From Escherichia coli (GTDB lineage: Bacteria > Pseudomonadota > Gammaproteobacteria > Enterobacterales > Enterobacteriaceae), in assembly GCF_003018255.1 (NCBI RefSeq), contig NZ_CP027440.1: 64,000 bases of DNA. The stretch is one strand, 5' to 3'. Below the pieces are notes generated by a model that did no database searches, was not told the origin of the DNA, and saw only the letters and a list, made by a program, of their open reading frames with translations. Position 1 is the stretch's first letter; every line of letters begins with the position of its first letter. Below are positions 2,685-61,177 of the stretch, piece after piece. Made by a program: the position numbers and the translations under genes.

Positions 2685-3026
2685 TCAGGCGACTTTCTGT
2701 TTACCCGCAATCACCCCAATAAATTCCCGCACCTGCTTTTGTTTACGCGCCGACAGCTTGCACACCTGGCGCAGCGACTGCATTAGCTCGCTCTCTTCGG
2801 GGGCGGGTGGTTGGGCGGTGAGGACAATACAGCCTTCCATCACTTTGACAGCTATCGCCGTGCCGGTGGCAAAACCGGCGGCTTCCAGCCACTGACCTTT
2901 CAGGGTGATGGCGGGAATACGGCTGTAATCCGGGTAGCGACTCGCATAACTCACGGTTAATTGACGGTTATTTGCCGGGGAGACTTCTGCTTCGAACGGT
3001 TGTGCAATAGAATGCGTGTCAGTCAT
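2685..3026 (-). CDS. symE: SymE SOS-induced toxin (type I toxin-antitoxin, AbrB-fold RNase-like), 113 aa
   Basis: Translation from ATG at 3024-3026 ([52 protein letters not shown]...) matches SymE; AAGGA Shine-Dalgarno; the ORF-track N-terminal extension is probably not translated. Confidence 0.85.
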
Positions 3027-3097
3027 AACTGCTATTCCTTGAAAATAGTGATTGTGATGAGCGGTGCGGGTGTGTTGGCGCACATCCGCACCGCGCT
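3020..3097 (+). ncRNA. symR: SymR-like cis-antisense sRNA covering the symE start codon and 5' UTR (approximate ends)
   Basis: Plus-strand -10 TAGAAT at 3008-3013 with weak -35 TTCTGC; the start would fall a few nt inside symE, as described for SymR; a 14-bp stem-loop at 3062-3095 could be the 3' end. Boundaries are inferred. Confidence 0.4.
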
Positions 3098-3104
3098 AAA
3101 TACC

Positions 3105-3120
3105 TGGATATATCATCAGT
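3105..3120 (-). promoter_or_regulatory. Candidate LexA box in the symE promoter
   Basis: Minus strand reads CTGATGATATATCCAG, i.e. CTG-N10-CAG with an AT-rich core, about 80 nt upstream of the symE ATG; symE is a known SOS gene. Confidence 0.35.
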
Positions 3121-3197
3121 AAATACAGGGAAAGTCCAGCTAAAAATTAATGAAAATAAGATAGAAGTTAGCGTGAAATATAATTTTTGGTGATGTG

Positions 3198-3234
3198 AAT
3201 AAAGCGGCTATTGAGCCGCTTTATTGGTTTTATG
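3198..3234. terminator. Hairpin terminator between hsdS and the symE promoter
   Basis: Perfect 11-bp stem AATAAAGCGGC/GCCGCTTTATT with 6-nt loop, followed by GGTTTTA on the plus strand; 13 nt downstream of the hsdS stop on the minus strand. Confidence 0.5.
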
Positions 3235-3246
3235 AGGGCGAGAAAA

Positions 3247-4983
3247 TTAGTTTATCGCCGCGTTAGTCAGTGCGTCTGCAAGGTGCAGTTGGGTTTGTTG
3301 GGCGGTTTTTATACGAGTTTTAAGCTTATCGCATAGTTCATGAAGTAAACCTACTTGTGAAAATATTCTATATTGTTCAGTTAATGGTGGGCATGGGAAT
3401 GAATACAACATTACACTATTTGCTGATAGGTTGGGTTGTGCTGAGCCATTATCAAAGCGGTAAATCTGTGAGCGCCCAAATGGACTGGTTAAATAATTAT
3501 AAATATACCCTCCCATTTCTGTGATAAATGGTCTAATGATCATTAGTGATGAGGCAATAGCTCCTGTTTCATAGGGGGTTACAAAGGCAGTTTTACCAAA
3601 AGTTGCTCCTCGTAGGCAATAAACCAAATCACCTTTTTGAATTTTCCCACTTCTTAATTCATTAAATTTTCCTTCGGTTATAAAATTCATTTCTGTAACC
3701 GTAAGTGTACCATTTTTTTCTATATGTCCAGTATTGATCCAAGGAATACCTTGAGAAACATACTCATTTTTATTGGGATAATTACTTCCACGATCGCCAT
3801 TTATAAACTCTGATGTTAAACCAAATTTACACCACTCCCACCCTTCCGGCAGTTCAAACGGTTTTTCCTCATTGCTAATTGGCGGTAGTGGTTTTTGTTT
3901 TTTTATTTTCCCTTCTTTCACCAGTTGAGCTTTTTCCTGCGCAATTCGTTTGAGCAGTTCAGAGGCGGGTTCGTCATTCGGATCCTGCGGCACAAGTTTA
4001 CCCATTACGGCCAGTTGAAGAATGGTCTGTTTTAACGCATCCACGCTGGCTTCGGTGGTAAATAGGGTGTCGAAATGCTCGCTAATACGCGCCCAGTTTT
4101 CAGCCAGTTCCTCGGCGTTTTGGCTGTCTGTAAGCGTTCCCAACAGGGTTTCAACCAGTTGCTGATGTGCGTCCAGACTGGTCAGGGATTGCTGTTCCAG
4201 TTGGTCGCAGAGAACTGTAAGTTCTCTGATTTTTCTGACAATTTGTTGTTGTTCATTTATAGGCGGTAAAGCGATTATCTGTTGTTCCATTTTTTCTTTA
4301 GTCATATGGAGCATTGCAATACCGTTACCTTGCGATTTTATTTTATCTGTAATGGATAAAAGAAAATCATGTATAAAATATTTGTTTGAGTACTCTTCTG
4401 CAAATAAATTTAATTTCCATATATGGTAGTGATAAATTACTTTTTCTCCTGTCCAAATGAATGGCCCAAAAGATGCGGACCAAGCGTATATTAAATCACC
4501 ATTATTTATATATTTGTTTTCGTCTAATTGGAGGTCAGAGTAATACCACTCATTTGATGTGAATAGATTACCAACACGCAGCAAAGGAGTGCCTGTTTGA
4601 AGCATTTCATGTTTTTTATATGCTCGACCGTTAATAACCTCCATGAGATCTGCAACCCGCACCCACTCCCATCCCTCCGGCAATTCAAACGGCTTCTCTT
4701 CCTCGCTAATTCCTGGCAGTGGTTTTTGCTTTTTAATTTTACCTTGCTTCACCAGCTCTGCTTTTTCCGCAGCAATACGCTTCAGCAGCTCCGACGCCGG
4801 TTCATCATTCGGATCCTGCGGCACCAGTTTACCGCGCACCGCCAGTTCCAGAATCAGCTCACGCAATTTCTTAATGCCATACAAATCAATTTTACCGGAA
4901 CTGCCGCGCCCGGCGGTGGAACGGGTTTGCAACGCCGAGGTCCAGGTTTCCATATGATCAACGATCAGCTTTTCCACACTCAT
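3247..4983 (-). CDS. hsdS: Type I restriction-modification specificity subunit HsdS (578 aa)
   Basis: Two AT-rich variable domains separated by duplicated conserved segments (KLVPQDPNDEPASELLKRIA...KPFELPEGWEW twice); start overlaps the hsdM stop (TGATG). Confidence 0.85.
   Translation of the reverse strand: MSVEKLIVDHMETWTSALQTRSTAGRGSSGKIDLYGIKKLRELILELAVRGKLVPQDPNDEPASELLKRIAAEKAELVKQGKIKKQKPLPGISEEEKPFELPEGWEWVRVADLMEVINGRAYKKHEMLQTGTPLLRVGNLFTSNEWYYSDLQLDENKYINNGDLIYAWSASFGPFIWTGEKVIYHYHIWKLNLFAEEYSNKYFIHDFLLSITDKIKSQGNGIAMLHMTKEKMEQQIIALPPINEQQQIVRKIRELTVLCDQLEQQSLTSLDAHQQLVETLLGTLTDSQNAEELAENWARISEHFDTLFTTEASVDALKQTILQLAVMGKLVPQDPNDEPASELLKRIAQEKAQLVKEGKIKKQKPLPPISNEEKPFELPEGWEWCKFGLTSEFINGDRGSNYPNKNEYVSQGIPWINTGHIEKNGTLTVTEMNFITEGKFNELRSGKIQKGDLVYCLRGATFGKTAFVTPYETGAIASSLMIIRPFITEMGGYIYNYLTSPFGRSQIYRFDNGSAQPNLSANSVMLYSFPCPPLTEQYRIFSQVGLLHELCDKLKTRIKTAQQTQLHLADALTNAAIN
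3829..4032. repeat. hsdS internal direct repeat, copy B (central conserved region)
   Basis: About 200 bp, roughly 80-85% identical by eye to 4660-4863; encodes the second GKLVPQDPNDEPASELLKRIA...PFELPEGWEW segment. Confidence 0.7.
4660..4863. repeat. hsdS internal direct repeat, copy A (N-terminal conserved region)
   Basis: Direct repeat partner of 3829-4032 within the same gene. Confidence 0.7.
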
Positions 4984-6452
4984 CAGTTAACCTCCTTGCC
5001 AGACAGCGCAGCGCCAAGAATATCGCGCAGTTGATTACGCAGCGTCTGGATCTCCGCCTGCTGTTTTGCATACTGCGCTAACAGTTCGTCCGGGTCATGG
5101 CTGACGGTTTCCGCCTGATGTGGGTTTTTAATATCCAGATTGAAGTTACGCGCAATCACGTCATCAATGCTGACTTTCCACGCTTGCTCATTCTCGATGC
5201 GGCTGGCAAAACCATCGGCCTCGTTACCCCACCAGTCAATCTCCGCCTGAAACTCTTCGAACTTCATCGGCTTGGTTTTACTGTAATTTTTCACGCCCGC
5301 CGGATACGGATGCTCATAGAACCAAATCTCTTTGGTTGGCTGACCTTTGGTAAAAAACAACAGGTTGGTTTTAATGCCGGTATAGGGGTTAAACACACCA
5401 TTCGGTAAACGCACGATGGTATGCAGATTGCACTCTTCGGTAAGCAGCTTTTTGATTTTGGTTTTAACGCCTTCGCCAAATAGCGTGCCATCCGGCAATA
5501 CCACCGCCGCGCGACCGTTTTTCGCCAGTACTTCCACAATCAGTTGCAGAAACAGATCCGCTGTTTCGCGGGTTTGCATCTCTGCCGGAAAGTTCTTCTC
5601 AATACCGTCTTCTTCCGTGCCACCAAACGGCGGGTTGGTAACAATGACATCCAGTTGCTCATCCCAGGAGGAAAGCGGTTTGTTCAGGGTGTTGTCGTGA
5701 CGAATTTGTACAGGCACTTCAATGCCGTGCAGCAGCATATTGGTGGTCGCCAGCAGGTGCGGAAGCTGTTTTTTCTCGACACCGTGGATCTGTTGTTGCA
5801 GCGTCTGATGATCGGCGACGCTCTTCACGTATTTGTTCTTTACATGATCGAACGCGCAGGCAAGAAAACCGCCCGTACCGCAGGCCGGGTCCATAATGGA
5901 TTCGCCGAGTTTCGGATCAACGCGATCCACCATAAAGCGAGTGACGGCGCGTGGCGTATAGAATTCGCCAGCATTGCCCGCAGATTGCAGATCTTTAAGG
6001 ATCTGTTCGTAAATATCACCAAACAGATGGCGTTCGCTGGCGCTGGTAAAGTCAATTTCGTTCAGCTTGTTGATCACCTGGCGCAGTAGCGTACCGTTTT
6101 TCATATAGTTATAGGCATCGCTGAACGCCTGCTTCACCACGTAGCCGCGTGGGTTTTTATCGATAGGCGCAGTGAGGTTTTTCAACGCCGGGAACAGATC
6201 ATCATTAACGAATTCCAGCAGGGAATCACCGGTAATGCCCTGAGCGTTTGCGGCCCAACTGCGCCATAAATAACGCTGTGGGATCGGATATTGATAGTTA
6301 TCCTGCTCCAGTTCCAGCGCCTCTTCCTGGGCATCGAAGATTTTCAAAAACAGCAGCCAGGAGAGCTGACCGAGACGCTGCGCATCGCCATCCACACCGG
6401 CATCTTTGCGCATAATATCTTGTAATGATTTGATTACTGAACTGATAGACAT
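4983..6452 (-). CDS. hsdM: Type I restriction-modification N6-adenine DNA methyltransferase HsdM
   Basis: SAM-binding motif DPACGTGGFL and catalytic NPPFGG present. Start chosen at ATG 6450-6452 (MSISSVIK...); in-frame alternative ATGs at 6464 and 6488 (longest ORF 4983-6488). Confidence 0.85.
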   Translation of the reverse strand: MSISSVIKSLQDIMRKDAGVDGDAQRLGQLSWLLFLKIFDAQEEALELEQDNYQYPIPQRYLWRSWAANAQGITGDSLLEFVNDDLFPALKNLTAPIDKNPRGYVVKQAFSDAYNYMKNGTLLRQVINKLNEIDFTSASERHLFGDIYEQILKDLQSAGNAGEFYTPRAVTRFMVDRVDPKLGESIMDPACGTGGFLACAFDHVKNKYVKSVADHQTLQQQIHGVEKKQLPHLLATTNMLLHGIEVPVQIRHDNTLNKPLSSWDEQLDVIVTNPPFGGTEEDGIEKNFPAEMQTRETADLFLQLIVEVLAKNGRAAVVLPDGTLFGEGVKTKIKKLLTEECNLHTIVRLPNGVFNPYTGIKTNLLFFTKGQPTKEIWFYEHPYPAGVKNYSKTKPMKFEEFQAEIDWWGNEADGFASRIENEQAWKVSIDDVIARNFNLDIKNPHQAETVSHDPDELLAQYAKQQAEIQTLRNQLRDILGAALSGKEVN

Positions 6453-6518
6453 GTTGTATTCCATGAAAAACAAGGCCTTCTGCAACATGATGGTTGCAGA
6501 AGGCGCAAAAGAGAGTTG

Positions 6519-8951
6519 TTAAGCAGAGCGGGGCGGTAATTGGTAGATTTCGTTTTCCAGCTCGCTGAGCGCCTGATTATACCCGTTACGGTCGCCAAAT
6601 CCGGTTTTAATAATCTCCGGTAAGGTGCCCATGCTGTCGAATGGTTTAAGTTTCAGCACCTGAATACTTTCGATCTCCTGTACGCCCGCATCGGCGTATT
6701 TATCCAGCAGATTATCGAGCACGGCTTGCGCTGCTTCAGAGTATTTTGTGAAGTAGTTCCGCTTGCGCACGTTCTCGGCGCGCTCTTTGCGGGTTAACGG
6801 CGGCTGACCATACACTACGTGGCAAAGCATGTCGAACGGGTCGAGATCTTTACCGACTTCTTCTGCCAGTACTTCCCAGATGATCCCCTGTTGTTCCAGC
6901 TCGTGAATGATCGCTTCTTTGCGATCGGCGTCCTGCCACTTGCGGGTAAAGTCATCCAGCGAGGCATATTCTTTGAGCAGTGTTTTGCGGGTGTAATCTT
7001 TAAAAGATTCGGTAACCAGTTTACCGTCGGCATCGTAATACTGAACACGCTGCGCAATAACGCCCACCGCTACACCGTTGACGTGAAACTTGCGGATTTT
7101 CTTCTCGTCTTCTTCCGGAAGTGGGCCGACATCATCGGTATCGGTAACCTGGTATGGTGGCGCAGGCGGTTCATCAACGCCTGTTACCTGTTCGTCGTCA
7201 TGTTCGCTGATTTCTTCGAGTTTCTCTTCAAAATCAGATTCTGGATCGGCGATATCCTCTGATGTGGTATCCATGACTTTTTCGGGAATGCCATCGAAAC
7301 GCTCATCGGCAAACAGTTCGGTGGCTTTTTTAAAGTCGAGGATGGTAAACCAGAGTTTGCCGTAACGTTCGTCGATGCGTGTACCACGACCGATAATTTG
7401 CTTGAATTTGGTCATCGACTGGATGTTCTGGTCCAGTACTACCAGTTTGCAGGTTTTAGCATCCACACCAGTGGTCATCAGCTCTGAAGTGGTCGCGATA
7501 ACCGGGTACGCTTTTTTCGGGTTGATGAAGTTATCCAACTGAGCTTTGCCAATTTCATCATCGCCGGTGATTTTCATGACGTATTTGTCGTTCTTTTTCA
7601 CCTGCTCCGGGTTGAGATTCACCAGGGCGCGGCGCATACGTTCTGCATGATCGATGTCGTTACAGAAGACGATGGTTTTATCCATCGGGTTGGTGCGCTT
7701 GAGGTAGTCGGTAATGGTTCTGGCAACCAGTTCTGTCCGTTCGTCGATTACCATCGTGCGATCGAAATCTTTCTGGTTATAGATACGATCGTCGATCACT
7801 TCGCCGTTTAAGTCAGTTTGCCCTTTGGTTGGGCGCCAGCCTTGCAGATCAACATCAATATCAACACGGACAACTTTATAAGGGGCGAGGAAGCCGTCTT
7901 CGATCCCTTCTTTTAGCGAGTAGACGTAAACCGGATCGCCGAAGTAATCCGTGCTGGAGACTTCATGCGTCTCTTTTGGCGTGGCGGTTAAGCCAATTTG
8001 GGTGGCGGAACTGAAATAATCAAGGATCTCTCGCCAGGCGCTGTCTTCGGATGCGCTGCCGCGATGGCATTCGTCGATCACGATCAGATCGAAGAAATCT
8101 GGTGCGACTTGTTTAAACGCTTTTTGGTCTTCCTCCGGGCCAGTTATAGCCTGATAGAGCGCGAGGTGAATTTCATAAGCGGGATCAATGGTGCGTCCGC
8201 TGACTTTGGTCATTGCCGTACCAAATGGCTGGAAATCATTATTTTTGGTTTGGTCGACCAGAATGTTGCGATCGGCAAGGAACAAAATGCGTTTTTTATT
8301 TTTTGATTTCCACAGGCGCCAGATGATCTGGAATGCGGTATAGGTTTTCCCTGTTCCGGTCGCCATGACCAGCAGAACGCGGTTTTGCCCGTTGGAGACG
8401 GCTTCAATGGTTTTGTTGATTGCCTGAAGCTGGTAATAACGAGGCGATTTGCCGCTGCCATCGTCGTAATAGTCCTGAGTAATCACCGGAAGCTGAGCTT
8501 GTGTGTATCCTTTCCAGAGGCAGAATTTTTGCCAGAGTTCAGCGGGGGAGGGGAAGTCATCCAGCGTTATTTGCTTTTCAAGGCATTCACCTTCAGCTGC
8601 GGTGGCATCGCGGAAGATAAAGCCATCACCGTTGGTGGCAAAAACAAAAGGAACGTCCAGCAGGCGCGCATATTCAATGCCCTGTTGCATCCCTTTGCCA
8701 ATTTCATGTTTGTTGGCTTTTGCTTCAATCACGGCTAAGGGAATGCCTGGTTTGTGATACAGCACGATGTCAGCAGATTTTACCGTTCTGCGTGCCGCAA
8801 CTTTACCACGTACGATGACTTTACCGTTCCGGAGTTTGACCTCCTGTCTGATTTGCGTTGTGTTGTCCCAGCCTGCATTGAGAATGGCTGGCATAACGCA
8901 TTTGGTAATGATGTCTGCTTCCGTCAGGTTACTTAGGTTCAGTTCCGCCAT
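6519..8951 (-). CDS. hsdR: Type I restriction endonuclease subunit HsdR, 810 aa (EcoAI-like / type IB size class)
   Basis: Helicase motifs [11 protein letters not shown] (Walker A) and VIDECHRG (DECH box); 810 aa is far shorter than EcoKI-type HsdR; gene order hsdR-hsdM-hsdS on the minus strand. Confidence 0.9.
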
Positions 8952-34335: not shown

Positions 34336-34422
34336 TGGTGCGAGGGGGGGGACTTGAACCCCCACGTCCGTAAGGACACTAACACCTGAAGCTAGCGCGT
34401 CTACCAATTCCGCCACCTTCGC
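34336..34422 (-). tRNA. leuV: tRNA-Leu (anticodon CAG), third gene of the leuQPV operon
   Basis: Reverse complement reads GCGAAGGTGGCGGAATTGGTAGACGCGCTAGCTTCAGGTGTTAGTGTCCTTACGGACGTGGGGGTTCAAGTCCCCCCCCTCGCACCA (87 nt, encoded CCA). Confidence 0.95.
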
Positions 34423-34456
34423 ACAGTCATCTTACTTTTTTTGATATTGCCTCGTT

Positions 34457-34543
34457 TGGTGCGAGGGGGGGGACTTGAACCCCCACGTCCGTAAGAACAC
34501 TAACACCTGAAGCTAGCGCGTCTACCAATTCCGCCACCTTCGC
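34457..34543 (-). tRNA. leuP: tRNA-Leu (anticodon CAG), middle copy; variable-arm C-to-T variant relative to the flanking copies
   Basis: Same 87-nt sequence except plus-strand A at 34496 (tRNA sense GTGTTCTTAC instead of GTGTCCTTAC). Confidence 0.95.
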
Positions 34544-34571
34544 CCAGTGCGAGCAATATCAACGTGGTTTT

Positions 34572-34658
34572 TGGTGCGAGGGGGGGGACTTGAACCCCCA
34601 CGTCCGTAAGGACACTAACACCTGAAGCTAGCGCGTCTACCAATTCCGCCACCTTCGC
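34572..34658 (-). tRNA. leuQ: tRNA-Leu (anticodon CAG), promoter-proximal copy
   Basis: Identical 87-nt tRNA-Leu sequence. Confidence 0.95.
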
Positions 34659-34692
34659 ATACCGTCAATTCTTAAAAAGAATTGCTACCACG

Positions 34693-34727
34693 GAGGCGCA
34701 TTCTAGTGGTTTTCAGCTTTTCGTCAA
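34693..34727 (-). promoter_or_regulatory. Sigma-70 promoter of the leuQPV tRNA operon with GC-rich discriminator
   Basis: Minus strand: -35 TTGACG (34722-34727), 16-nt spacer, -10 TAGAAT (34700-34705), then GCGCCTCC discriminator; AT-rich UP-like sequence upstream. Confidence 0.5.
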
Positions 34728-34802
34728 TAGTTAATTATCGACAGAGGTGTAATTGCTGGAAAAATGTCCATCAGCGGATTGTGGATAATTCGTTTGTCGG
34801 TC

Positions 34803-34842
34803 AGATAAGGCGTGTACGCCGCATCCGACACGGTATGCGGCG
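34803..34842. repeat. REP element
   Basis: GATAAGGCGTGTACGCCGCATCCGACACGGTATGCGGCG palindromic unit between rsmC and leuQ. Confidence 0.5.
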
Positions 34843-34857
34843 ATATATATCAGATAC

Positions 34858-35889
34858 TCAACCTTTCTTCGCCTGGCGGGTCATAATGGCGCGATACACC
34901 TTGAAGCGCCCGGTTTGCGCGATCACTTCGTGGAAGCCAAATGTCTCATCCAGCACGTCCGGATAAGGCAGGAAGGCGTTCGCTACAATTCGCAGCTCGC
35001 CGCCGCTATTAAGATGACGCACCGCGCCGCGAATCAGCGTTTGCGCGGCATCCAGGCTGGTTTGCATCCCATCGTGGAACGGCGGGTTGGAGATGATCAT
35101 ATCAAAACGACCTTTCACCTCGGAAAAGACGTTACTGGCAAAGACTTCACCTTCAACACCGTTGGCCGCAAGTGTTGCGCGGCTGGCTTCTACCGCTGGT
35201 GCAGAGACATCGCACAGAGTGAGACGAATTTTCGGCGAATGGCGCGCAAAGGCAACCGAAAGTACGCCCGCGCCACAGCCGACATCCAGCACTTTACCTT
35301 TCGTGTGCGGGGTTAACGTCGAGAGCAGCAACTGGCTACCGACATCCAGACCGTCGCGGCTAAACACGCCAGGCAGCGTTTTGACCGTCAGGCCATCGAC
35401 GCTGTATTCGCCCCAGAATTTATCGGCATCAAATACTGGCTGTTTTTCCAGACGACCAAAATAGAGGCCACAGCGACGAGCGCTGTCCATTTTATTCAAC
35501 GGCGCATAATCTGACAGCATCTGCTCGGCGCTGCGCACGCCGCTGCGGTTCTCGCCAACGACAAAAATATCCGTGCCCACTGGCAGCAGAGAAAGTAAAT
35601 TCATCAACTGGAACTGGGCTTCCGGTTTGTTCTTCGGCCAGTAGTAAATCAGCGTATCGCAATCTGCGACATCATCCGCCGTGGCGACCAGACTAAAACG
35701 GGCGTTATCCCCCATCTGGCGGCTTAACACCTGCCAGTGGTGGAATTGCTGGGTATGAGCACGGCTGGCCGCGGTATCTAAACGCGCGGGCAGGTCATCC
35801 TGTAAGTCTCCGGCAAAAAGAATACGGCTTTGTTCGAAATCATCACTGTGACGCAGCAAGACTTCACTTGCCGGGGTAAATGCAGACAT
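34858..35889 (-). CDS. rsmC: 16S rRNA (guanine1207-N2)-methyltransferase RsmC
   Basis: 343 aa, SAM-MTase motifs [11 protein letters not shown] and NPPFH. Confidence 0.9.
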
Positions 35890-35991
35890 GGAATGCTCCT
35901 CAATTAATACTGGCGGCGATTATAGCCATATGTTGGCGCGGTATCGACGAATTTGCTATATTTGCGCCCCTGACAACAGGAGCGATTCGCT

Positions 35992-36405
35992 ATGACATCC
36001 CGACGAGACTGGCAGTTACAGCAACTGGGCATTACCCAGTGGTCGCTGCGTCGCCCTGGCGCGTTGCAGGGGGAGATTGCCATTGCGATCCCGGCACACG
36101 TCCGTCTGGTGATGGTGGCAAACGATCTTCCCGCCCTGACCGATCCTATAGTGAGCGATGTTCTGCGCGCGTTAACCGTCAGCCCCGATCAAGTGCTGCA
36201 ACTGACGCCAGAAAAAATCGCGATGCTGCCGCAAGGCAGTCGCTGCAACAGCTGGCGGTTGGGTACTGACGAACCGCTATCACTGGAAGGCGCTCAGGTG
36301 GCATCACCGGCGCTCACCGAATTACGGGCAAACCCAACGGCACGCGCCGCGTTATGGCAACAAATTTGCACATATGAACACGATTTCTTCCCTCGAAACG
36401 ACTGA
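35992..36405 (+). CDS. holD: DNA polymerase III psi subunit HolD
   Basis: MTSRRDWQLQQLGITQWSLRRPGALQGEIAIAIPAHVRLVMVANDLPAL... 137 aa. Confidence 0.9.
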   Translation: MTSRRDWQLQQLGITQWSLRRPGALQGEIAIAIPAHVRLVMVANDLPALTDPIVSDVLRALTVSPDQVLQLTPEKIAMLPQGSRCNSWRLGTDEPLSLEGAQVASPALTELRANPTARAALWQQICTYEHDFFPRND

Positions 36406-36820
36406 TTTACCAGCGGCTTACCACATTGAACAACGCGCCCACGCCTTTCCGTGGAGTGAAAAAACCTTTGCCAGCAACCAGGGCGAGCGTTATCTCAACT
36501 TTCAGTTAACGCAAAACGGCAAAATGGCGGCGTTTGCGATTACGCAAGTGGTGCTGGATGAAGCTACATTGTTCAATATTGCGGTCGATCCTGACTATCA
36601 GCGTCAGGGATTGGGAAGGGCGCTGCTGGAACATCTGATCGACGAACTGGAAAAACGCGGCGTGGCGACGCTATGGCTGGAAGTCCGTGCTTCAAACGCT
36701 GCCGCCATTGCCCTGTACGAAAGTTTAGGCTTTAACGAGGCGACAATTCGCCGCAATTACTACCCCACCACGGACGGTCGCGAAGACGCCATCATCATGG
36801 CGTTGCCAATCAGTATGTAA
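36374..36820 (+). CDS. rimI: Ribosomal protein S18 alanine N-acetyltransferase RimI
   Basis: 148-aa GNAT protein ([14 protein letters not shown]); overlaps holD by 32 nt. Confidence 0.9.
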
Positions 36821-36834
36821 GACAAGGTGGAATA

Positions 36835-37512
36835 ATGAAGTGGGACTGGATTTTCTTTGATGCCGATGAAACGCTGTTTACCTTTGACTCATTCACCGGC
36901 TTGCAGCGGATGTTTCTTGATTACAGCGTCACCTTTACCGCTGAAGATTTTCAGGACTATCAGGCCGTTAACAAGCCACTGTGGGTGGATTATCAAAACG
37001 GCGCGATCACTTCATTACAGCTTCAGCACGGGCGGTTTGAGAGCTGGGCCGAACGGCTGAACGTCGAGCCGGGTAAACTCAACGAAGCCTTTATTAATGC
37101 GATGGCGGAAATCTGTACGCCACTGCCGGGCGCGGTTTCTCTGCTTAACGCCATTCGTGGCAACGCTAAAATTGGCATCATCACCAACGGCTTTAGCGCC
37201 TTGCAGCAAGTGCGTCTGGAACGCACGGGCCTGCGTGATTATTTCGATTTGCTGGTGATTTCCGAAGAAGTTGGCGTTGCCAAACCGAATAAGAAAATTT
37301 TCGATTATGCGCTGGAACAGGCAGGCAATCCTGACCGTTCACGTGTGCTGATGGTTGGCGACACAGCTGAGTCCGATATTCTCGGTGGCATCAACGCCGG
37401 GCTTGCGACCTGCTGGCTGAATGCGCACAATCGCGAGCAACCAGAAGGCATCGCGCCCACCTGGACCGTTTCTTCGTTGCACGAACTGGAGCAGCTCCTG
37501 TGTAAACACTGA
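36835..37512 (+). CDS. yjjG: HAD-superfamily pyrimidine 5'-nucleotidase YjjG
   Basis: [15 protein letters not shown] (HAD motif I DxDxT); 225 aa. Confidence 0.9.
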
Positions 37513-37602
37513 TTGCCTCCCCCCCGTTGATGGGTAAAATAGCCGCAATTTTTCGTTTTCAACAAGCGCGGCGCGATGCCGCTTACTCAAGAAGAAAGAA
37601 TT

Positions 37603-39192
37603 ATGACGTTGTCTCCTTATTTGCAAGAGGTGGCGAAGCGCCGCACTTTTGCCATTATTTCTCACCCGGACGCCGGTAAGACTACCATCACCGAGAAGGT
37701 GCTGCTGTTCGGACAGGCCATTCAGACCGCCGGTACAGTAAAAGGCCGTGGTTCCAACCAGCACGCTAAGTCGGACTGGATGGAGATGGAAAAGCAGCGT
37801 GGGATCTCCATTACTACGTCTGTGATGCAGTTTCCGTATCACGATTGCCTGGTTAACCTGCTCGACACCCCGGGGCACGAAGACTTCTCGGAAGATACCT
37901 ATCGTACCCTGACGGCGGTGGACTGCTGCCTGATGGTTATCGACGCCGCAAAAGGTGTTGAAGATCGTACCCGTAAGCTGATGGAAGTTACCCGTCTGCG
38001 CGACACGCCGATCCTCACCTTTATGAACAAACTTGACCGTGATATCCGCGACCCGATGGAGCTGCTCGATGAAGTTGAGAACGAGCTGAAAATCGGCTGC
38101 GCACCGATCACCTGGCCGATTGGCTGCGGCAAGCTGTTTAAAGGCGTTTACCACCTTTATAAAGATGAAACCTATCTCTATCAGAGCGGTAAAGGCCACA
38201 CGATTCAGGAAGTCCGCATTGTTAAAGGGCTGAATAACCCGGATCTCGACGCTGCGGTTGGTGAAGATCTGGCACAGCAGCTACGTGACGAACTGGAGCT
38301 GGTGAAAGGCGCGTCTAACGAGTTCGACAAAGAGCTGTTCCTTGCGGGCGAAATCACTCCGGTATTCTTCGGTACTGCGCTGGGTAACTTCGGCGTTGAT
38401 CATATGCTGGATGGCCTGGTGGAGTGGGCTCCTGCGCCGATGCCGCGTCAGACTGATACCCGTACCGTAGAGGCGAGCGAAGACAAATTTACCGGCTTCG
38501 TATTTAAAATTCAGGCCAACATGGACCCGAAACACCGCGACCGCGTGGCGTTTATGCGTGTGGTGTCCGGTAAATATGAAAAAGGCATGAAGCTGCGCCA
38601 GGTGCGTACTGCGAAAGATGTGGTGATCTCCGACGCGCTGACCTTTATGGCGGGTGACCGTTCGCACGTTGAAGAAGCGTATCCTGGCGATATCCTTGGT
38701 CTGCACAACCACGGCACCATTCAGATCGGCGACACCTTTACCCAGGGTGAGATGATGAAGTTCACCGGTATTCCGAACTTCGCGCCAGAACTGTTCCGTC
38801 GTATCCGCCTGAAAGATCCGCTGAAGCAAAAACAGCTGCTTAAAGGGCTGGTACAGCTTTCCGAAGAGGGCGCGGTGCAGGTGTTCCGTCCGATCTCCAA
38901 CAACGATCTGATCGTTGGTGCGGTTGGTGTGCTGCAGTTTGATGTGGTGGTAGCGCGTCTGAAGAGCGAATACAACGTTGAAGCAGTGTATGAGTCAGTC
39001 AACGTTGCCACTGCCCGCTGGGTAGAATGTGCGGACGCGAAGAAATTCGAAGAGTTCAAGCGTAAGAACGAAAGCCAACTGGCGCTTGATGGCGGCGATA
39101 ACCTCGCTTACATCGCTACCAGCATGGTCAACCTGCGCCTGGCGCAGGAACGTTATCCAGACGTTCAGTTCCACCAGACCCGCGAGCATTAA
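37603..39192 (+). CDS. prfC: Peptide chain release factor 3 (RF3)
   Basis: [41 protein letters not shown]... translational GTPase; ATG at 37603. Confidence 0.95.
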
Positions 39193-39202
39193 TTCTTGCC
39201 TC

Positions 39203-39236
39203 CAGGGCGCGGTAGCCGCTGCGCCCTGTCAATTTC
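39203..39236 (+). terminator. Hairpin terminator after prfC
   Basis: 8-bp GC stem CAGGGCGC/GCGCCCTG with 10-nt loop, followed by a weak T-tract. Confidence 0.45.
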
Positions 39237-39584
39237 CCTTCCTTATTAGCCGCTTACGGAATGTTCTTAAAACATTCACTTTTGCTTATGTTTTCGCTGA
39301 TATCCCGAGCGGTTTCAAAATTGTGATCTATATTTAACAAAGTAATGACATTTCTGACGGCGTTAAATACCGTTCAATGCGTAGATATCAGTATCTAAAG
39401 CCGTCGATTGTCATTCTACCGATATTAATAACTGATTCAGAGGCTGTAATGGTCGTTATTCATCACCCATCGCTTTTGTGATGGCGGCCATTGACTTCTG
39501 TAGAGGGTGAAGTCTCTCCCTATTCAGCAATGCAACCTCGTGTTGCCAGGCTCAAATTACGAGCAAACATACAGGAATAAATCG

Positions 39585-40191
39585 ATGACTATGACAAGAC
39601 TGAAGATTTCGAAAACTCTGCTGGCTGTAATGTTGACCTCTGCCGTCGCGACCGGCTCTGCCTACGCGGAAAACAACGCACAGACTACCAATGAAAGCGC
39701 AGGGCAAAAAGTCGATAGCTCTATGAATAAAGTCGGTAATTTCATGGATGACAGCGCCATCACCGCGAAAGTGAAGGCGGCGCTGGTGGATCATGACAAC
39801 ATCAAGAGCACCGATATCTCTGTCAAAACCGATCAAAAAGTCGTGACCCTGAGCGGTTTCGTTGAAAGCCAGGCTCAGGCCGAAGAGGCAGTGAAAGTGG
39901 CGAAAGGCGTTGAAGGGGTGACCTCTGTCAGCGACAAACTGCACGTTCGCGACGCTAAAGAAGGCTCGGTGAAGGGCTACGCGGGTGACACCGCCACCAC
40001 CAGTGAAATCAAAGCCAAACATGCTGGCGGACGATATCGTCCCTTCCCGTCATGTGAAAGTTGAAACCACCGACGGCGTGGTTCAGCTCTCCGGTACCGT
40101 CGATTCCCAGGCACAGAGCGACCGTGCTGAAAGTATCGCCAAAGCGGTAGATGGTGTGAAAAGCGTTAAAAATGATCTGAAAACTAAGTAA
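39585..40191 (+). pseudogene. osmY: osmY (periplasmic BON-domain osmotic-stress protein) disrupted by a +1 frameshift near 40020-40021
   Basis: Frame 1 (39585-40064) gives signal peptide and first BON domain, then terminates early (...[20 protein letters not shown]); the second BON domain (...[52 protein letters not shown]) continues in the +1 frame to 40191; one extra A in AAAC-A-TGCTGGCGGAC. Confidence 0.7.
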
Positions 40192-40317
40192 TTCGTCGTA
40201 ATTCGTCCTCCCGAACTTTGTCGGGAGGCGCGATGTGCACCACACTAAAAATATCGCATTGAGTGATTTTCACGCTCATATCAAGCGGTGACATTAACTA
40301 TGGTAAAGGAGACGCTT

Positions 40318-40479
40318 ATGTTTCGTTGGGGCATCATATTTCTGGTTATCGCGTTAATCGCCGCCGCACTTGGGTTTGGTGGTCTGGCCGGTACCGCTGC
40401 AGGCGCAGCTAAAATTGTCTTTGTCGTCGGGATTATTCTGTTCCTGGTGAGTTTGTTCATGGGCCGAAAACGACCCTAG
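40318..40479 (+). CDS. ytjA: Small membrane protein YtjA (DUF1328), 53 aa
   Basis: [53 protein letters not shown]. Confidence 0.75.
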
Positions 40480-40600
40480 ATTTCAGACCATTAAGAAAAT
40501 TTTATCCAAAGCCAGTCCAGCGGACTGGCTTTTGCGGTTTTAGCGAATAATAAATTGCGTTACTTTGTCATTCTTTCACAACAAAAACAGGAAGGCAGAG

Positions 40601-41674
40601 GTGGGGCAGCGAATACCTGTAACGCTTGGTAATATTGCGCCGTTGTCGCTAAGGCCGTTCCAGCCTGGACGAATAGCTCTGGTGTGCGAAGGCGGCGGAC
40701 AGCGTGGAATTTTCACGGCTGGCGTGCTGGATGAGTTTATGCGCGCGCAGTTTAATCCTTTCGATCTTTATCTCGGCACATCTGCCGGGGCGCAGAACCT
40801 CTCGGCGTATATCTGCAATCAGCCCGGTTACGCGCGCAAAGTCATCATGCGCTATACCACAAAACGCGAATTTTTCGATCCATTGCGCTTTGTCCGTGGA
40901 GGAAATCTTATCGATCTCGACTGGCTGGTGGAGGCCACTGCAAGCCAGATGCCGTTGCAAATGGATACCGCCGCGCGGTTGTTTGACAGCGGCAAATCGT
41001 TTTATATGTGCGCCTGTCGTCAGGATGACTATGCGCCGAATTACTTTTTACCAACCAAACAAAACTGGCTGGATGTGATTCGCGCCTCCAGTGCGATACC
41101 TGGCTTTTATCGTAGCGGAGTGTCGCTGGAAGGCATTAACTACCTGGATGGCGGGATCAGTGATGCGATTCCGGTTAAAGAGGCGGCAAGGCAGGGAGCA
41201 AAAACCTTGGTCGTCATCCGCACCGTGCCGTCGCAAATGTACTACACGCCGCAGTGGTTCAAACGCATGGAACGCTGGCTGGGTGACAGTAGCCTGCAGC
41301 CGCTGGTCAATCTGGTGCAGCATCATGAAACCAGCTATCGTGACATTCAGCAATTTATTGAGAAACCACCGGGCCAGCTGCGGATATTCGAAATTTATCC
41401 GCCGAAGCCGTTGCATAGTATCGCGCTTGGCAGTCGGATTCCGGCGCTGCGTGAAGACTATAAACTTGGGCGTTTATGCGGTCGTTATTTTCTGGCAACG
41501 GTCGGTAAGTTATTGACTGAAAAAGCGCCGCTTACCCGCCATCTGGTGCCGGTGGTGACGCCGGAATCGATTGTCATTCCGCCTGCGCCAGTCGCCAACG
41601 ATACGCTGGTTGCCGAAGTGATCGACGCTCCGCAGGCGAACGACCCGACATTTAACAATGAGGATCTGGCTTGA
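40601..41674 (+). CDS. yjjU: Patatin-like phospholipase YjjU
   Basis: GxGxxG (CEGGGQRG) and GTSAG serine-hydrolase motif; GTG start at 40601. Confidence 0.85.
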   Translation: MGQRIPVTLGNIAPLSLRPFQPGRIALVCEGGGQRGIFTAGVLDEFMRAQFNPFDLYLGTSAGAQNLSAYICNQPGYARKVIMRYTTKREFFDPLRFVRGGNLIDLDWLVEATASQMPLQMDTAARLFDSGKSFYMCACRQDDYAPNYFLPTKQNWLDVIRASSAIPGFYRSGVSLEGINYLDGGISDAIPVKEAARQGAKTLVVIRTVPSQMYYTPQWFKRMERWLGDSSLQPLVNLVQHHETSYRDIQQFIEKPPGQLRIFEIYPPKPLHSIALGSRIPALREDYKLGRLCGRYFLATVGKLLTEKAPLTRHLVPVVTPESIVIPPAPVANDTLVAEVIDAPQANDPTFNNEDLA

Positions 41675-42450
41675 TTTGCCGTTTTATCGACACCCACTGC
41701 CATTTTGATTTCCCGCCTTTTAGTGGTGATGAAGAGGCCAGCCTGCAACGCGCGGCACAAGCGGGCGTAGGCAAGATCATTGTTCCGGCGACAGAGGCGG
41801 AAAATTTTGCCCGCGTGCAGGCGTTAGCGGAAAAATATCAACCGCTGTATGCCGCATTGGGCTTGCATCCTGGTATGTTGAAAAAACATAGCGATGTGTC
41901 TCTTGATCAGCTACAGCAGGCGCTGGAAAGGCGTCCGGCGAAGGTGGTGGCGGTGGGGGAGATCGGTCTGGATCTCTTCGGCGACGATCCGCAATTTGAG
42001 AGGCAGCAGTGGTTACTCGACGAACAACTGAAACTGGCGAAACGCTACGATCTGCCGGTGATCCTGCATTCACGGCGCACACACGACAAACTGGCGATGC
42101 ATCTTAAACGCCACGATTTGCCACGCACTGGCGTGGTTCACGGTTTTTCCGGCAGCCTGCAACAGGCCGAAAGGTTTGTACTGCTGGGCTACAAAATCGG
42201 CGTAGGCGGTACTATCACCTATCCACGCGCCAGTAAAACCCGCGATGTCATCGCAAAATTACCGCTGGCATCGTTGTTGCTGGAAACCGACGCGCCGGAT
42301 ATGCCGCTCAACGGCTTTCAGGGGCAGCCTAACCGCCCGGAACAGGCTGCGCGGGTGTTTGACGTACTTTGCGAGTTACGCCCGGAACCAGAAGATGAGA
42401 TTGCCGAAGTGTTGCTAAATAATACGTATACGTTGTTTAACGTGCCGTAG
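41671..42450 (+). CDS. yjjV: TatD-family metal-dependent hydrolase/DNase YjjV
   Basis: (M)ICRFIDTHCHFDFPPF... TatD motifs; TTG start overlapping the yjjU stop. Confidence 0.85.
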   Translation: MICRFIDTHCHFDFPPFSGDEEASLQRAAQAGVGKIIVPATEAENFARVQALAEKYQPLYAALGLHPGMLKKHSDVSLDQLQQALERRPAKVVAVGEIGLDLFGDDPQFERQQWLLDEQLKLAKRYDLPVILHSRRTHDKLAMHLKRHDLPRTGVVHGFSGSLQQAERFVLLGYKIGVGGTITYPRASKTRDVIAKLPLASLLLETDAPDMPLNGFQGQPNRPEQAARVFDVLCELRPEPEDEIAEVLLNNTYTLFNVP

Positions 42451-42667
42451 GCCGGATAAGGCGTTCACGCCGCATCCGGCAGTTGGCGCACAATGCCTGA
42501 TGCGACGCTTGACGCGTCTTATCATGCCTACAAGTCTGTGCCGAACCGTAGGCCGGATAAGGCGTTCACGCCGCATCCGGCAGCTGGCGCACAATGCCTG
42601 ATGCGACGCTTGACGCATCTTATCATGCCTACAGGTCTGTGCCGATCCGTAGGCCGTATCCGGCATG
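42447..42667. repeat. BIME-type tandem array: two ~100-bp units (each carrying two REP palindromes) plus a partial third unit
   Basis: Units 42447-42547 and 42548-42645 are near-identical (GTAGGCCGGATAAGGCGTTCACGCCGCATCCGGCAG...TGCCTGATGCGACGCTTGACGC...) followed by GTAGGCCGTATCCGGCATG. Confidence 0.65.
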
Positions 42668-46090: not shown

Positions 46091-46167
46091 GGCTTGATTT
46101 GCCGGATGATGCAGCGATGCTCATCCGGTTCCCCGATTACCTCGTCTCTTTTCCACGGGAGGTTACC

Positions 46168-48765: not shown

Positions 48766-48821
48766 TGGATTTGGGCGGAGCAGTGACTCCGCCTTTAATA
48801 TGTCACAAAAAGGATAAAACG

Positions 48822-60223: not shown

Positions 60224-60565
<342 letters not shown>

Positions 60566-60570
60566 TTTTG

Positions 60571-61177
<607 letters not shown>

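Follow-up and report, generated by a model that had tools for sequence, protein, structure and literature searches.

The osmY locus of the Escherichia coli isolate considered here carries one extra A at position 40021 of the window (the whole 64,000-nt stretch of DNA that was analysed), and this base is read, with high confidence, as a genuine, strain-private +1 frameshift that makes osmY a pseudogene. The evidence comprises the exact localization of the inserted base, its recovery in an assembly of raw reads, its position outside any homopolymer, the unbroken state of the other coding sequences in the window, and the anatomy of the two open reading frames (ORFs) that the insertion leaves behind.

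The osmY locus and its lesion

Pairwise alignment with the E. coli E04 reference revealed a single-base insertion in the window at 40021, where the window reads AAAGCCAAACATGCTGG and E04 reads AAAGCCAAAC-TGCTGG; written around the inserted base, the window is AAAGCCAAAC-A-TGCTGGCGGA and the reference AAAGCCAAACTGCTGGCGGA. The wild type at 40015-40025 reads AAACTGCTG, and the form with the extra A reads AAACATGCTG. The insertion lies at nt 436/437 of osmY in the context AAAC^TGC, which contains no homopolymer, and the alignment showed no indel relative to E04 in the upstream osmY region. Removal of A40021 yields a 606-nt ORF encoding the canonical 201-aa OsmY, residues 29-201 of which are identical to PDB chain 8rjx_A. 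When the bases from 39960 to 40069 were deleted one at a time and each product was translated, A40021 proved to be the only single-base deletion that restores the exact canonical protein. Relative to its full-length orthologues, the osmY ORF is thus broken by an indel whose length is not divisible by three, as is characteristic of a frameshift pseudogene.

These results bear directly on a preceding sequence-only reading of the same DNA, which has held up in all its sequence claims but for one small imprecision. Its description of a first frame closing at 40064 after a nonsense tail agrees with the ORF from ATG 39585, which stops at TGA 40062-40064, and its assignment of the C-terminal half to the +1 frame agrees with the translation, in which the offset frame runs to 40191. 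Its proposal that one extra A at about 40021 explains the split, and that a single 201-aa ORF returns once this base is taken out, is confirmed and sharpened by the alignment and the deletion scan, which place the insertion exactly at 40021. The features of the locus are collected in Table 1.

Table 1. Features of the frameshifted osmY locus (positions in the window)
Feature	Position	Strand	Basis or remark
osmY locus, read as a frameshifted pseudogene	39585..40191	+	607 nt vs 606 nt
Inserted A, between C and T of wild-type codon 146 (CTG, Leu)	40021	+	Pairwise alignment with E04
Upstream ORF, 159 aa: signal peptide (1-28), linker, BON1, 11 BON2 residues, 14 out-of-frame residues, TGA	39585..40064	+	
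BON domain 1 coding region, intact (residues 55-122)	39747..39950	+	Pfam PF04972, E=2.1e-20
BON domain 2 coding region (wild-type residues 135-200), broken at 40021	39987..40185	+	Pfam PF04972, E=1.4e-19 (restored protein)
Downstream ORF from the new ATG, 56 aa = wild-type residues 146-201 with L146M, without signal peptide	40021..40191	+	
Native osmY Shine-Dalgarno AGGA, 8 nt 5' of ATG	39573..39576	+	Read from sequence; duplex -4.3 kcal/mol

At the level of domains, Pfam places the BON domains of the restored protein at residues 55-122 and 135-200, both being found only with A40021 removed; the limits given in the literature are 55-123 and 134-201 (PMC7935960). The sequence-only reading had put the two BON domains in different frames. 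The frame split is real, but the break falls inside BON2 rather than between the domains, at codon 146 and about 12 positions into the 69-position Pfam BON model; since BON2 starts at residue 135, its first 11 residues stay in the upstream frame.

Membership in the OsmY family was assessed with the equivalog model NF007858 of NCBIfam ('molecular chaperone OsmY'), which has 206 positions and a curated cutoff of 174 bits. Against this model the restored 201-aa protein scored 366.8 bits over profile positions 1-205 of 206, the 159-aa fragment 248.1 bits, covering positions 1-149 only, and the 56-aa fragment 109.4 bits, under the cutoff. The Sec signal peptide of OsmY is present (residues 1-28; the solved chain 8rjx_A starts at E29), and the chromosomal position is kept, with the synteny prfC-osmY-ytjA-yjjU; as encoded, however, the two BON domains no longer share one polypeptide. 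Because the encoded form departs from this dual-BON, single-polypeptide architecture, the locus, whose sequence, signal peptide and chromosomal position identify it as OsmY, is on sequence grounds an osmY pseudogene and not an intact member of the family.

The insertion also creates ATG 40021-40023 in frame with the downstream half, as had been pointed out in the sequence-only reading, and an independent gene caller called the resulting 56-aa ORF, along with the 159-aa ORF, in the contig of the public Logan assembly discussed below. Pairing of this start with the anti-Shine-Dalgarno sequence of the 16S 3' tail amounts to -2.3 kcal/mol, which is weaker than at 88% of 60 annotated starts in the window and also weaker than the median of all window ATG triplets (-2.85), and the ORF is nested within the translated upstream ORF. 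The new ATG is probably of no consequence, because it lacks Shine-Dalgarno pairing and its product lacks a signal peptide. Another potential start in the BON2 frame, GTG 39985 on the plus strand, opens a 68-aa ORF and has an SD-like GAAGG 8 nt on its 5' side (-6.0 kcal/mol). This signal is probably fortuitous, because the identical bases occur in wild-type osmY, and the objections to the product of ATG 40021 hold for GTG 39985 as well. A minus-strand ORF at 39552-40022 (156 aa) was taken as a shadow ORF of osmY, as nothing points to a gene.

Distribution of the allele

A 41-mer centred on the insertion, which is unable to seed a megablast match on the wild-type sequence, was found by megablast in none of 5,426 complete RefSeq E. 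coli genomes. As a control, the wild-type 40-mer matched 4,759 of the same 5,426 complete genomes, and the full osmY locus matched 5,423 of them, the best matches being a 606-nt osmY at 99.8% identity. The insertion allele was likewise absent from the GTDB species representative genomes, scanned with an exact 35-mer, and from JGI metagenome contigs, scanned with an exact 22-mer. Judged by these collections, the allele appears private to a single isolate. Only the allele itself, absent from the collections compared, is new; single-base frameshifts of dispensable stress genes are a well-known kind of event.

Authenticity of the insertion and alternative explanations

Both the 159-aa and the 56-aa product are recorded in identical form twice, from an NCBI contig (4,892,666 bp), presumably the chromosome to which the window belongs, and from the Logan assembly of run SRR8931299. 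In the latter, a contig of 7,844 bp is 100% identical to window positions 34631-42474, without gaps and with the extra A included. Read-based k-mer assembly breaks at repeats, and this contig ends in repeated sequence on either side, within one of three tandem tRNA-Leu(CAG) genes and within an intergenic repeat element; it was therefore rebuilt independently from the raw reads rather than copied from the deposited sequence. The three tRNA-Leu(CAG) genes occupy 34336-34658 on the minus strand, and the contig stops within the third. Furthermore, it runs unbranched through the insertion site, which argues against an appreciable wild-type subpopulation. For a broader view of sequence quality, the translations of 61 reference CDSs, drawn from two annotated genomes of close relatives, were compared with the window. 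Sixty of the 61 align in one frame without gaps, nearly all of them end to end (the exceptions being trpR, whose last two residues are missing at a polymorphic junction, and creB, which runs past the window end), and only osmY splits between frames. The other three 1-bp indels relative to E04, within the 31 kb that are collinear around osmY, are all intergenic. A further sign of a clean window is the GmrSD-type gene described below, which is whole here but annotated as broken in the closest complete genome.

The sequence-only reading had left the choice between an inactivating mutation and a sequencing error; the Logan contig, the non-homopolymer site and the 60 unbroken genes now favour a genuine mutation, and the extra A is held with very high confidence to be present in the sequenced DNA. 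An error of sequencing, polishing or assembly, whereby the isolate would have an intact 201-aa osmY and the extra A would exist in the deposited sequence only, is considered unlikely. Such an error would sit well with the uniqueness of the allele to one source, and the NCBI record and the Logan contig may derive from the same reads, as SRR8931299 may be the NCBI assembly's own run. It is also true that many annotated bacterial pseudogenes are assembly artefacts, although the spurious ones cluster in poor assemblies (Cooley and Wright 2024, PMC11017572). The window does not look like a poor assembly of this type: all 60 other CDSs are clean, with none of the scattered frameshifts of an error-prone assembly, and a second assembler working on raw reads arrived at the identical base in an unbranched contig of 7.8 kb. 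Homopolymer extension is, moreover, the usual context of platform indel errors, and the present insertion lies outside any homopolymer. The insertion may be a natural mutation or one acquired in laboratory culture, and its absence from all other genomes scanned gives it no lineage-level support.

Given a real insertion, full-length OsmY might still be produced through programmed or efficient spontaneous +1 ribosomal frameshifting, or through transcriptional slippage, in the overlap of the two frames (39970-40062), since skipping any one base within it opens a frame of 201 codons without a stop; disrupted genes of Salmonella have been reported to be expressed at a low level (PMC9122581). A shift elsewhere than at 40021, however, would leave wrong residues at the start of BON2, and a reading of 39970-40064 for recoding signals found neither a CUU-UGA motif of the prfB type preceded by an SD, nor an X XXY YYZ slippery heptamer, nor a run of at least 8 A/T on which the polymerase could slip, so that the overlap is devoid of any recognised slippery or stall motif and of long A/T runs. 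Programmed frameshift sites are also conserved, whereas the site in question recurs in 0 of 5,426 genomes, and recoding is accordingly regarded as highly improbable. The same very low probability is given to a functional split gene, in which each of the two ORFs would give a BON polypeptide and the two products would act on their own or come together again. Both ORFs do retain a Pfam BON match, the gene caller reported both, and the SD-like GAAGG precedes GTG 39985 in the downstream frame; yet the downstream piece has no signal peptide, and hence no route to the periplasm, it is without the first 11 residues of BON2, ATG 40021 has no SD, the start sites lie inside a translated ORF, and the arrangement is conserved in no other genome. 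Nothing supports programmed frameshifting or a functional split gene.

Predicted consequences of the frameshift

If the insertion is, as preferred here, a genuine pseudogenizing frameshift, osmY would still be transcribed from its sigma-S-dependent promoter and translated from the native start, and the 159-aa precursor would be exported through the Sec pathway and cleaved to about 131 aa. The truncated product would consist of BON1 followed by a 14-residue aberrant tail with one cysteine and would contain no foldable BON2, so that the cell would be left without dual-BON OsmY of full length. If a C-terminal fragment were initiated at ATG 40021, it would be expected to be poorly made and cytoplasmic, away from the periplasmic site of OsmY action. 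The disruption of the domain suggests that OsmY function would be lost or at best strongly impaired, with the phenotype expected of an osmY null or hypomorph, that is, a mild and conditional one.

The osmY gene is a dispensable stationary-phase and hyperosmotic stress gene, and its product is reported to act in the periplasm as a chaperone for self-associating autotransporters such as Ag43 and to contribute modestly to hyperosmotic tolerance. Because the gene is dispensable, osmY alleles of this kind can arise and persist sporadically. OsmY is a Sec-exported periplasmic dual-BON protein whose signal sequence is cleaved by LepB (PMC7806268), and it was originally identified as a periplasmic protein inducible by hyperosmotic conditions (Yim and Villarejo 1992, cited in PMC7935960). 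In a review (PMC8151025, citing Yan et al. 2019), OsmY is further reported to interact with TamB and to be required for the biogenesis of three self-associating autotransporters, Ag43, TibA and EhaA. The strain is accordingly predicted to be without full-length OsmY, possibly with reduced biogenesis of Ag43, TibA and EhaA and a slightly lower hyperosmotic tolerance. In practical terms, osmY promoter and protein reporters, as well as secretion tools based on OsmY fusions, would behave differently in such a mutant background. As regards annotation, the value of the finding is that the locus should be labelled an osmY pseudogene and not two small BON genes, as called on the Logan contig of SRR8931299.

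Other frameshifts in osmY

Additional frameshifted forms of OsmY were gathered as members of the 90%-identity protein cluster that holds the truncated product. One of them, a T added after nt 361 (GTT to GTTT), shortens the product to 124 aa and was seen in several read sets as well as in at least two complete chromosomes, CP027484.1 and CP027672.1; another, a G added in the GGGG run at nt 330 of osmY, is found in five read sets. Each of these two insertions occurs on two osmY sequence backgrounds, a pattern that suggests recurrence or recombination. In loci L004-L013 of other E. coli, the frameshifted osmY lies at 1501-2107 of each; in L004, L005, L006 and L009 the calls likewise divide the upstream prfC in two, and some of these assemblies may therefore be error-prone.

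Sporadic +1 frameshifts in osmY are a recurring and unremarkable event that fits a dispensable gene, and their recurrence alone is no evidence of selection, given the number of sequenced E. coli genomes. That the loss or truncation of osmY is adaptive rather than neutral, or that the exported BON1 fragment has a partial or altered function, is a notion prompted by at least three different +1 osmY insertions in unrelated E. coli backgrounds, and it is judged decidedly unlikely. If it were true, in the form of a stable BON1 with an aberrant tail and altered or partial chaperone activity, the allele would amount to a natural separation-of-function allele for the two BON domains. The insertion adds one allele to the set of recurrent osmY frameshifts and opens no new question.

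Genomic context

The window is an ordinary E. coli chromosomal segment that extends from yjiS and the hsd genes to creB and is 98.6-99.5% identical to the nearest complete genomes. A Shigella origin, which would raise the prior for pseudogenes, is unsupported: all 64 kb are collinear with E. coli at that level of identity, and no IS element was found in the 64-kb window.

Around the lesion itself, a 4-bp inverted repeat flanks the insertion, with GCCA at 40014-40017 and TGGC at 40026-40029. An origin of the insertion by quasi-palindrome or template-switch mutagenesis was nevertheless rejected, as the insertion does not improve the palindrome. A terminator scan returned a 5-pair minus-strand hairpin at the insertion site, which is a chance consensus match inside a coding region, and a scan for plus-strand sigma-70-like promoters, uninformative for a sigma-S promoter, gave none above the shuffled expectation. 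Downstream, 16 nt past the osmY stop, a perfect 8-bp inverted repeat, CCTCCCGA-ACTTTG-TCGGGAGG, occupies 40207-40228 on the plus strand; it lacks a T tract, and the terminator scan did not call it. Presumably it marks where the osmY transcript ends or serves as a binding site for a protein.

Elsewhere in the window, an intact 697-aa ORF for a DUF262/GmrSD-type restriction endonuclease lies at 545-2638 on the plus strand; in the closest complete genome, 2014C-3338, the corresponding region is annotated as a truncated DUF262 pseudogene and a separate 387-aa GmrSD protein. Adjoining this gene on the minus strand, at 2688-8951, are symE and a type I restriction-modification system (hsdS, hsdM and an hsdR of the EcoAI/FtnUII family), the proteins of which are 99.4-100% identical to their 2014C-3338 counterparts; together with the GmrSD gene, symE and this system form a small defence or 'immigration control' cluster. 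Between the convergent genes trpR and yjjX, the window has about 97 bp (60556-60653), whereas E04 has only about 6 bp and overlapping genes. It is at this junction that the trpR alignment loses its last two residues, and the difference is probably a polymorphism of an intergenic repeat element. The deoB-deoD and deoC-deoA intergenic regions (48768-48810 and 46091-46140) are likewise shorter than, and diverged from, those of E04, which contain an extra GC-rich, REP-like segment.

Comparison with known systems

Among known proteins with a similar domain composition, DolP (YraP; PDB 7A2D), a paralogous lipoprotein, shares the two-BON architecture of OsmY (PMC7806268). Unlike OsmY, it belongs to a different family (about 29.5% identity), is a lipoprotein and is not functionally interchangeable with OsmY, and its relevance here is confined to showing, at the level of structure, what losing BON2 entails.

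With regard to recoding, the programmed +1 frameshift of prfB (RF2) resembles the present case in that a +1 shift would be required for read-through of osmY. It differs in having a conserved shift site, an in-frame stop at the shift point, an upstream SD stimulator and conservation across strains, all of which osmY is without.

Parallels are also provided by the other frameshifted osmY genes (e.g., STG52611.1, 124 aa; runs DRR472191-3 and ERR10608950), which likewise combine a single-base +1 insertion and a 607-nt gene with one ORF for the N-terminal BON and another for the C-terminal BON. Their insertions, however, extend short homopolymers, from GGGG to GGGGG at nt 330 and from TT to TTT after nt 361, and are common to several genomes or read sets, whereas the present allele occurs in one isolate only.

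A further counterpart is E. coli OsmY itself (P0AFH8; structure PDB 8RJX). Apart from one base, the window gene is the commonest E. coli osmY allele, and it has the same neighbours, with prfC upstream and ytjA and yjjU downstream; it differs in the extra A at codon 146, which breaks BON2, so that the dual-BON protein is no longer encoded as one ORF.
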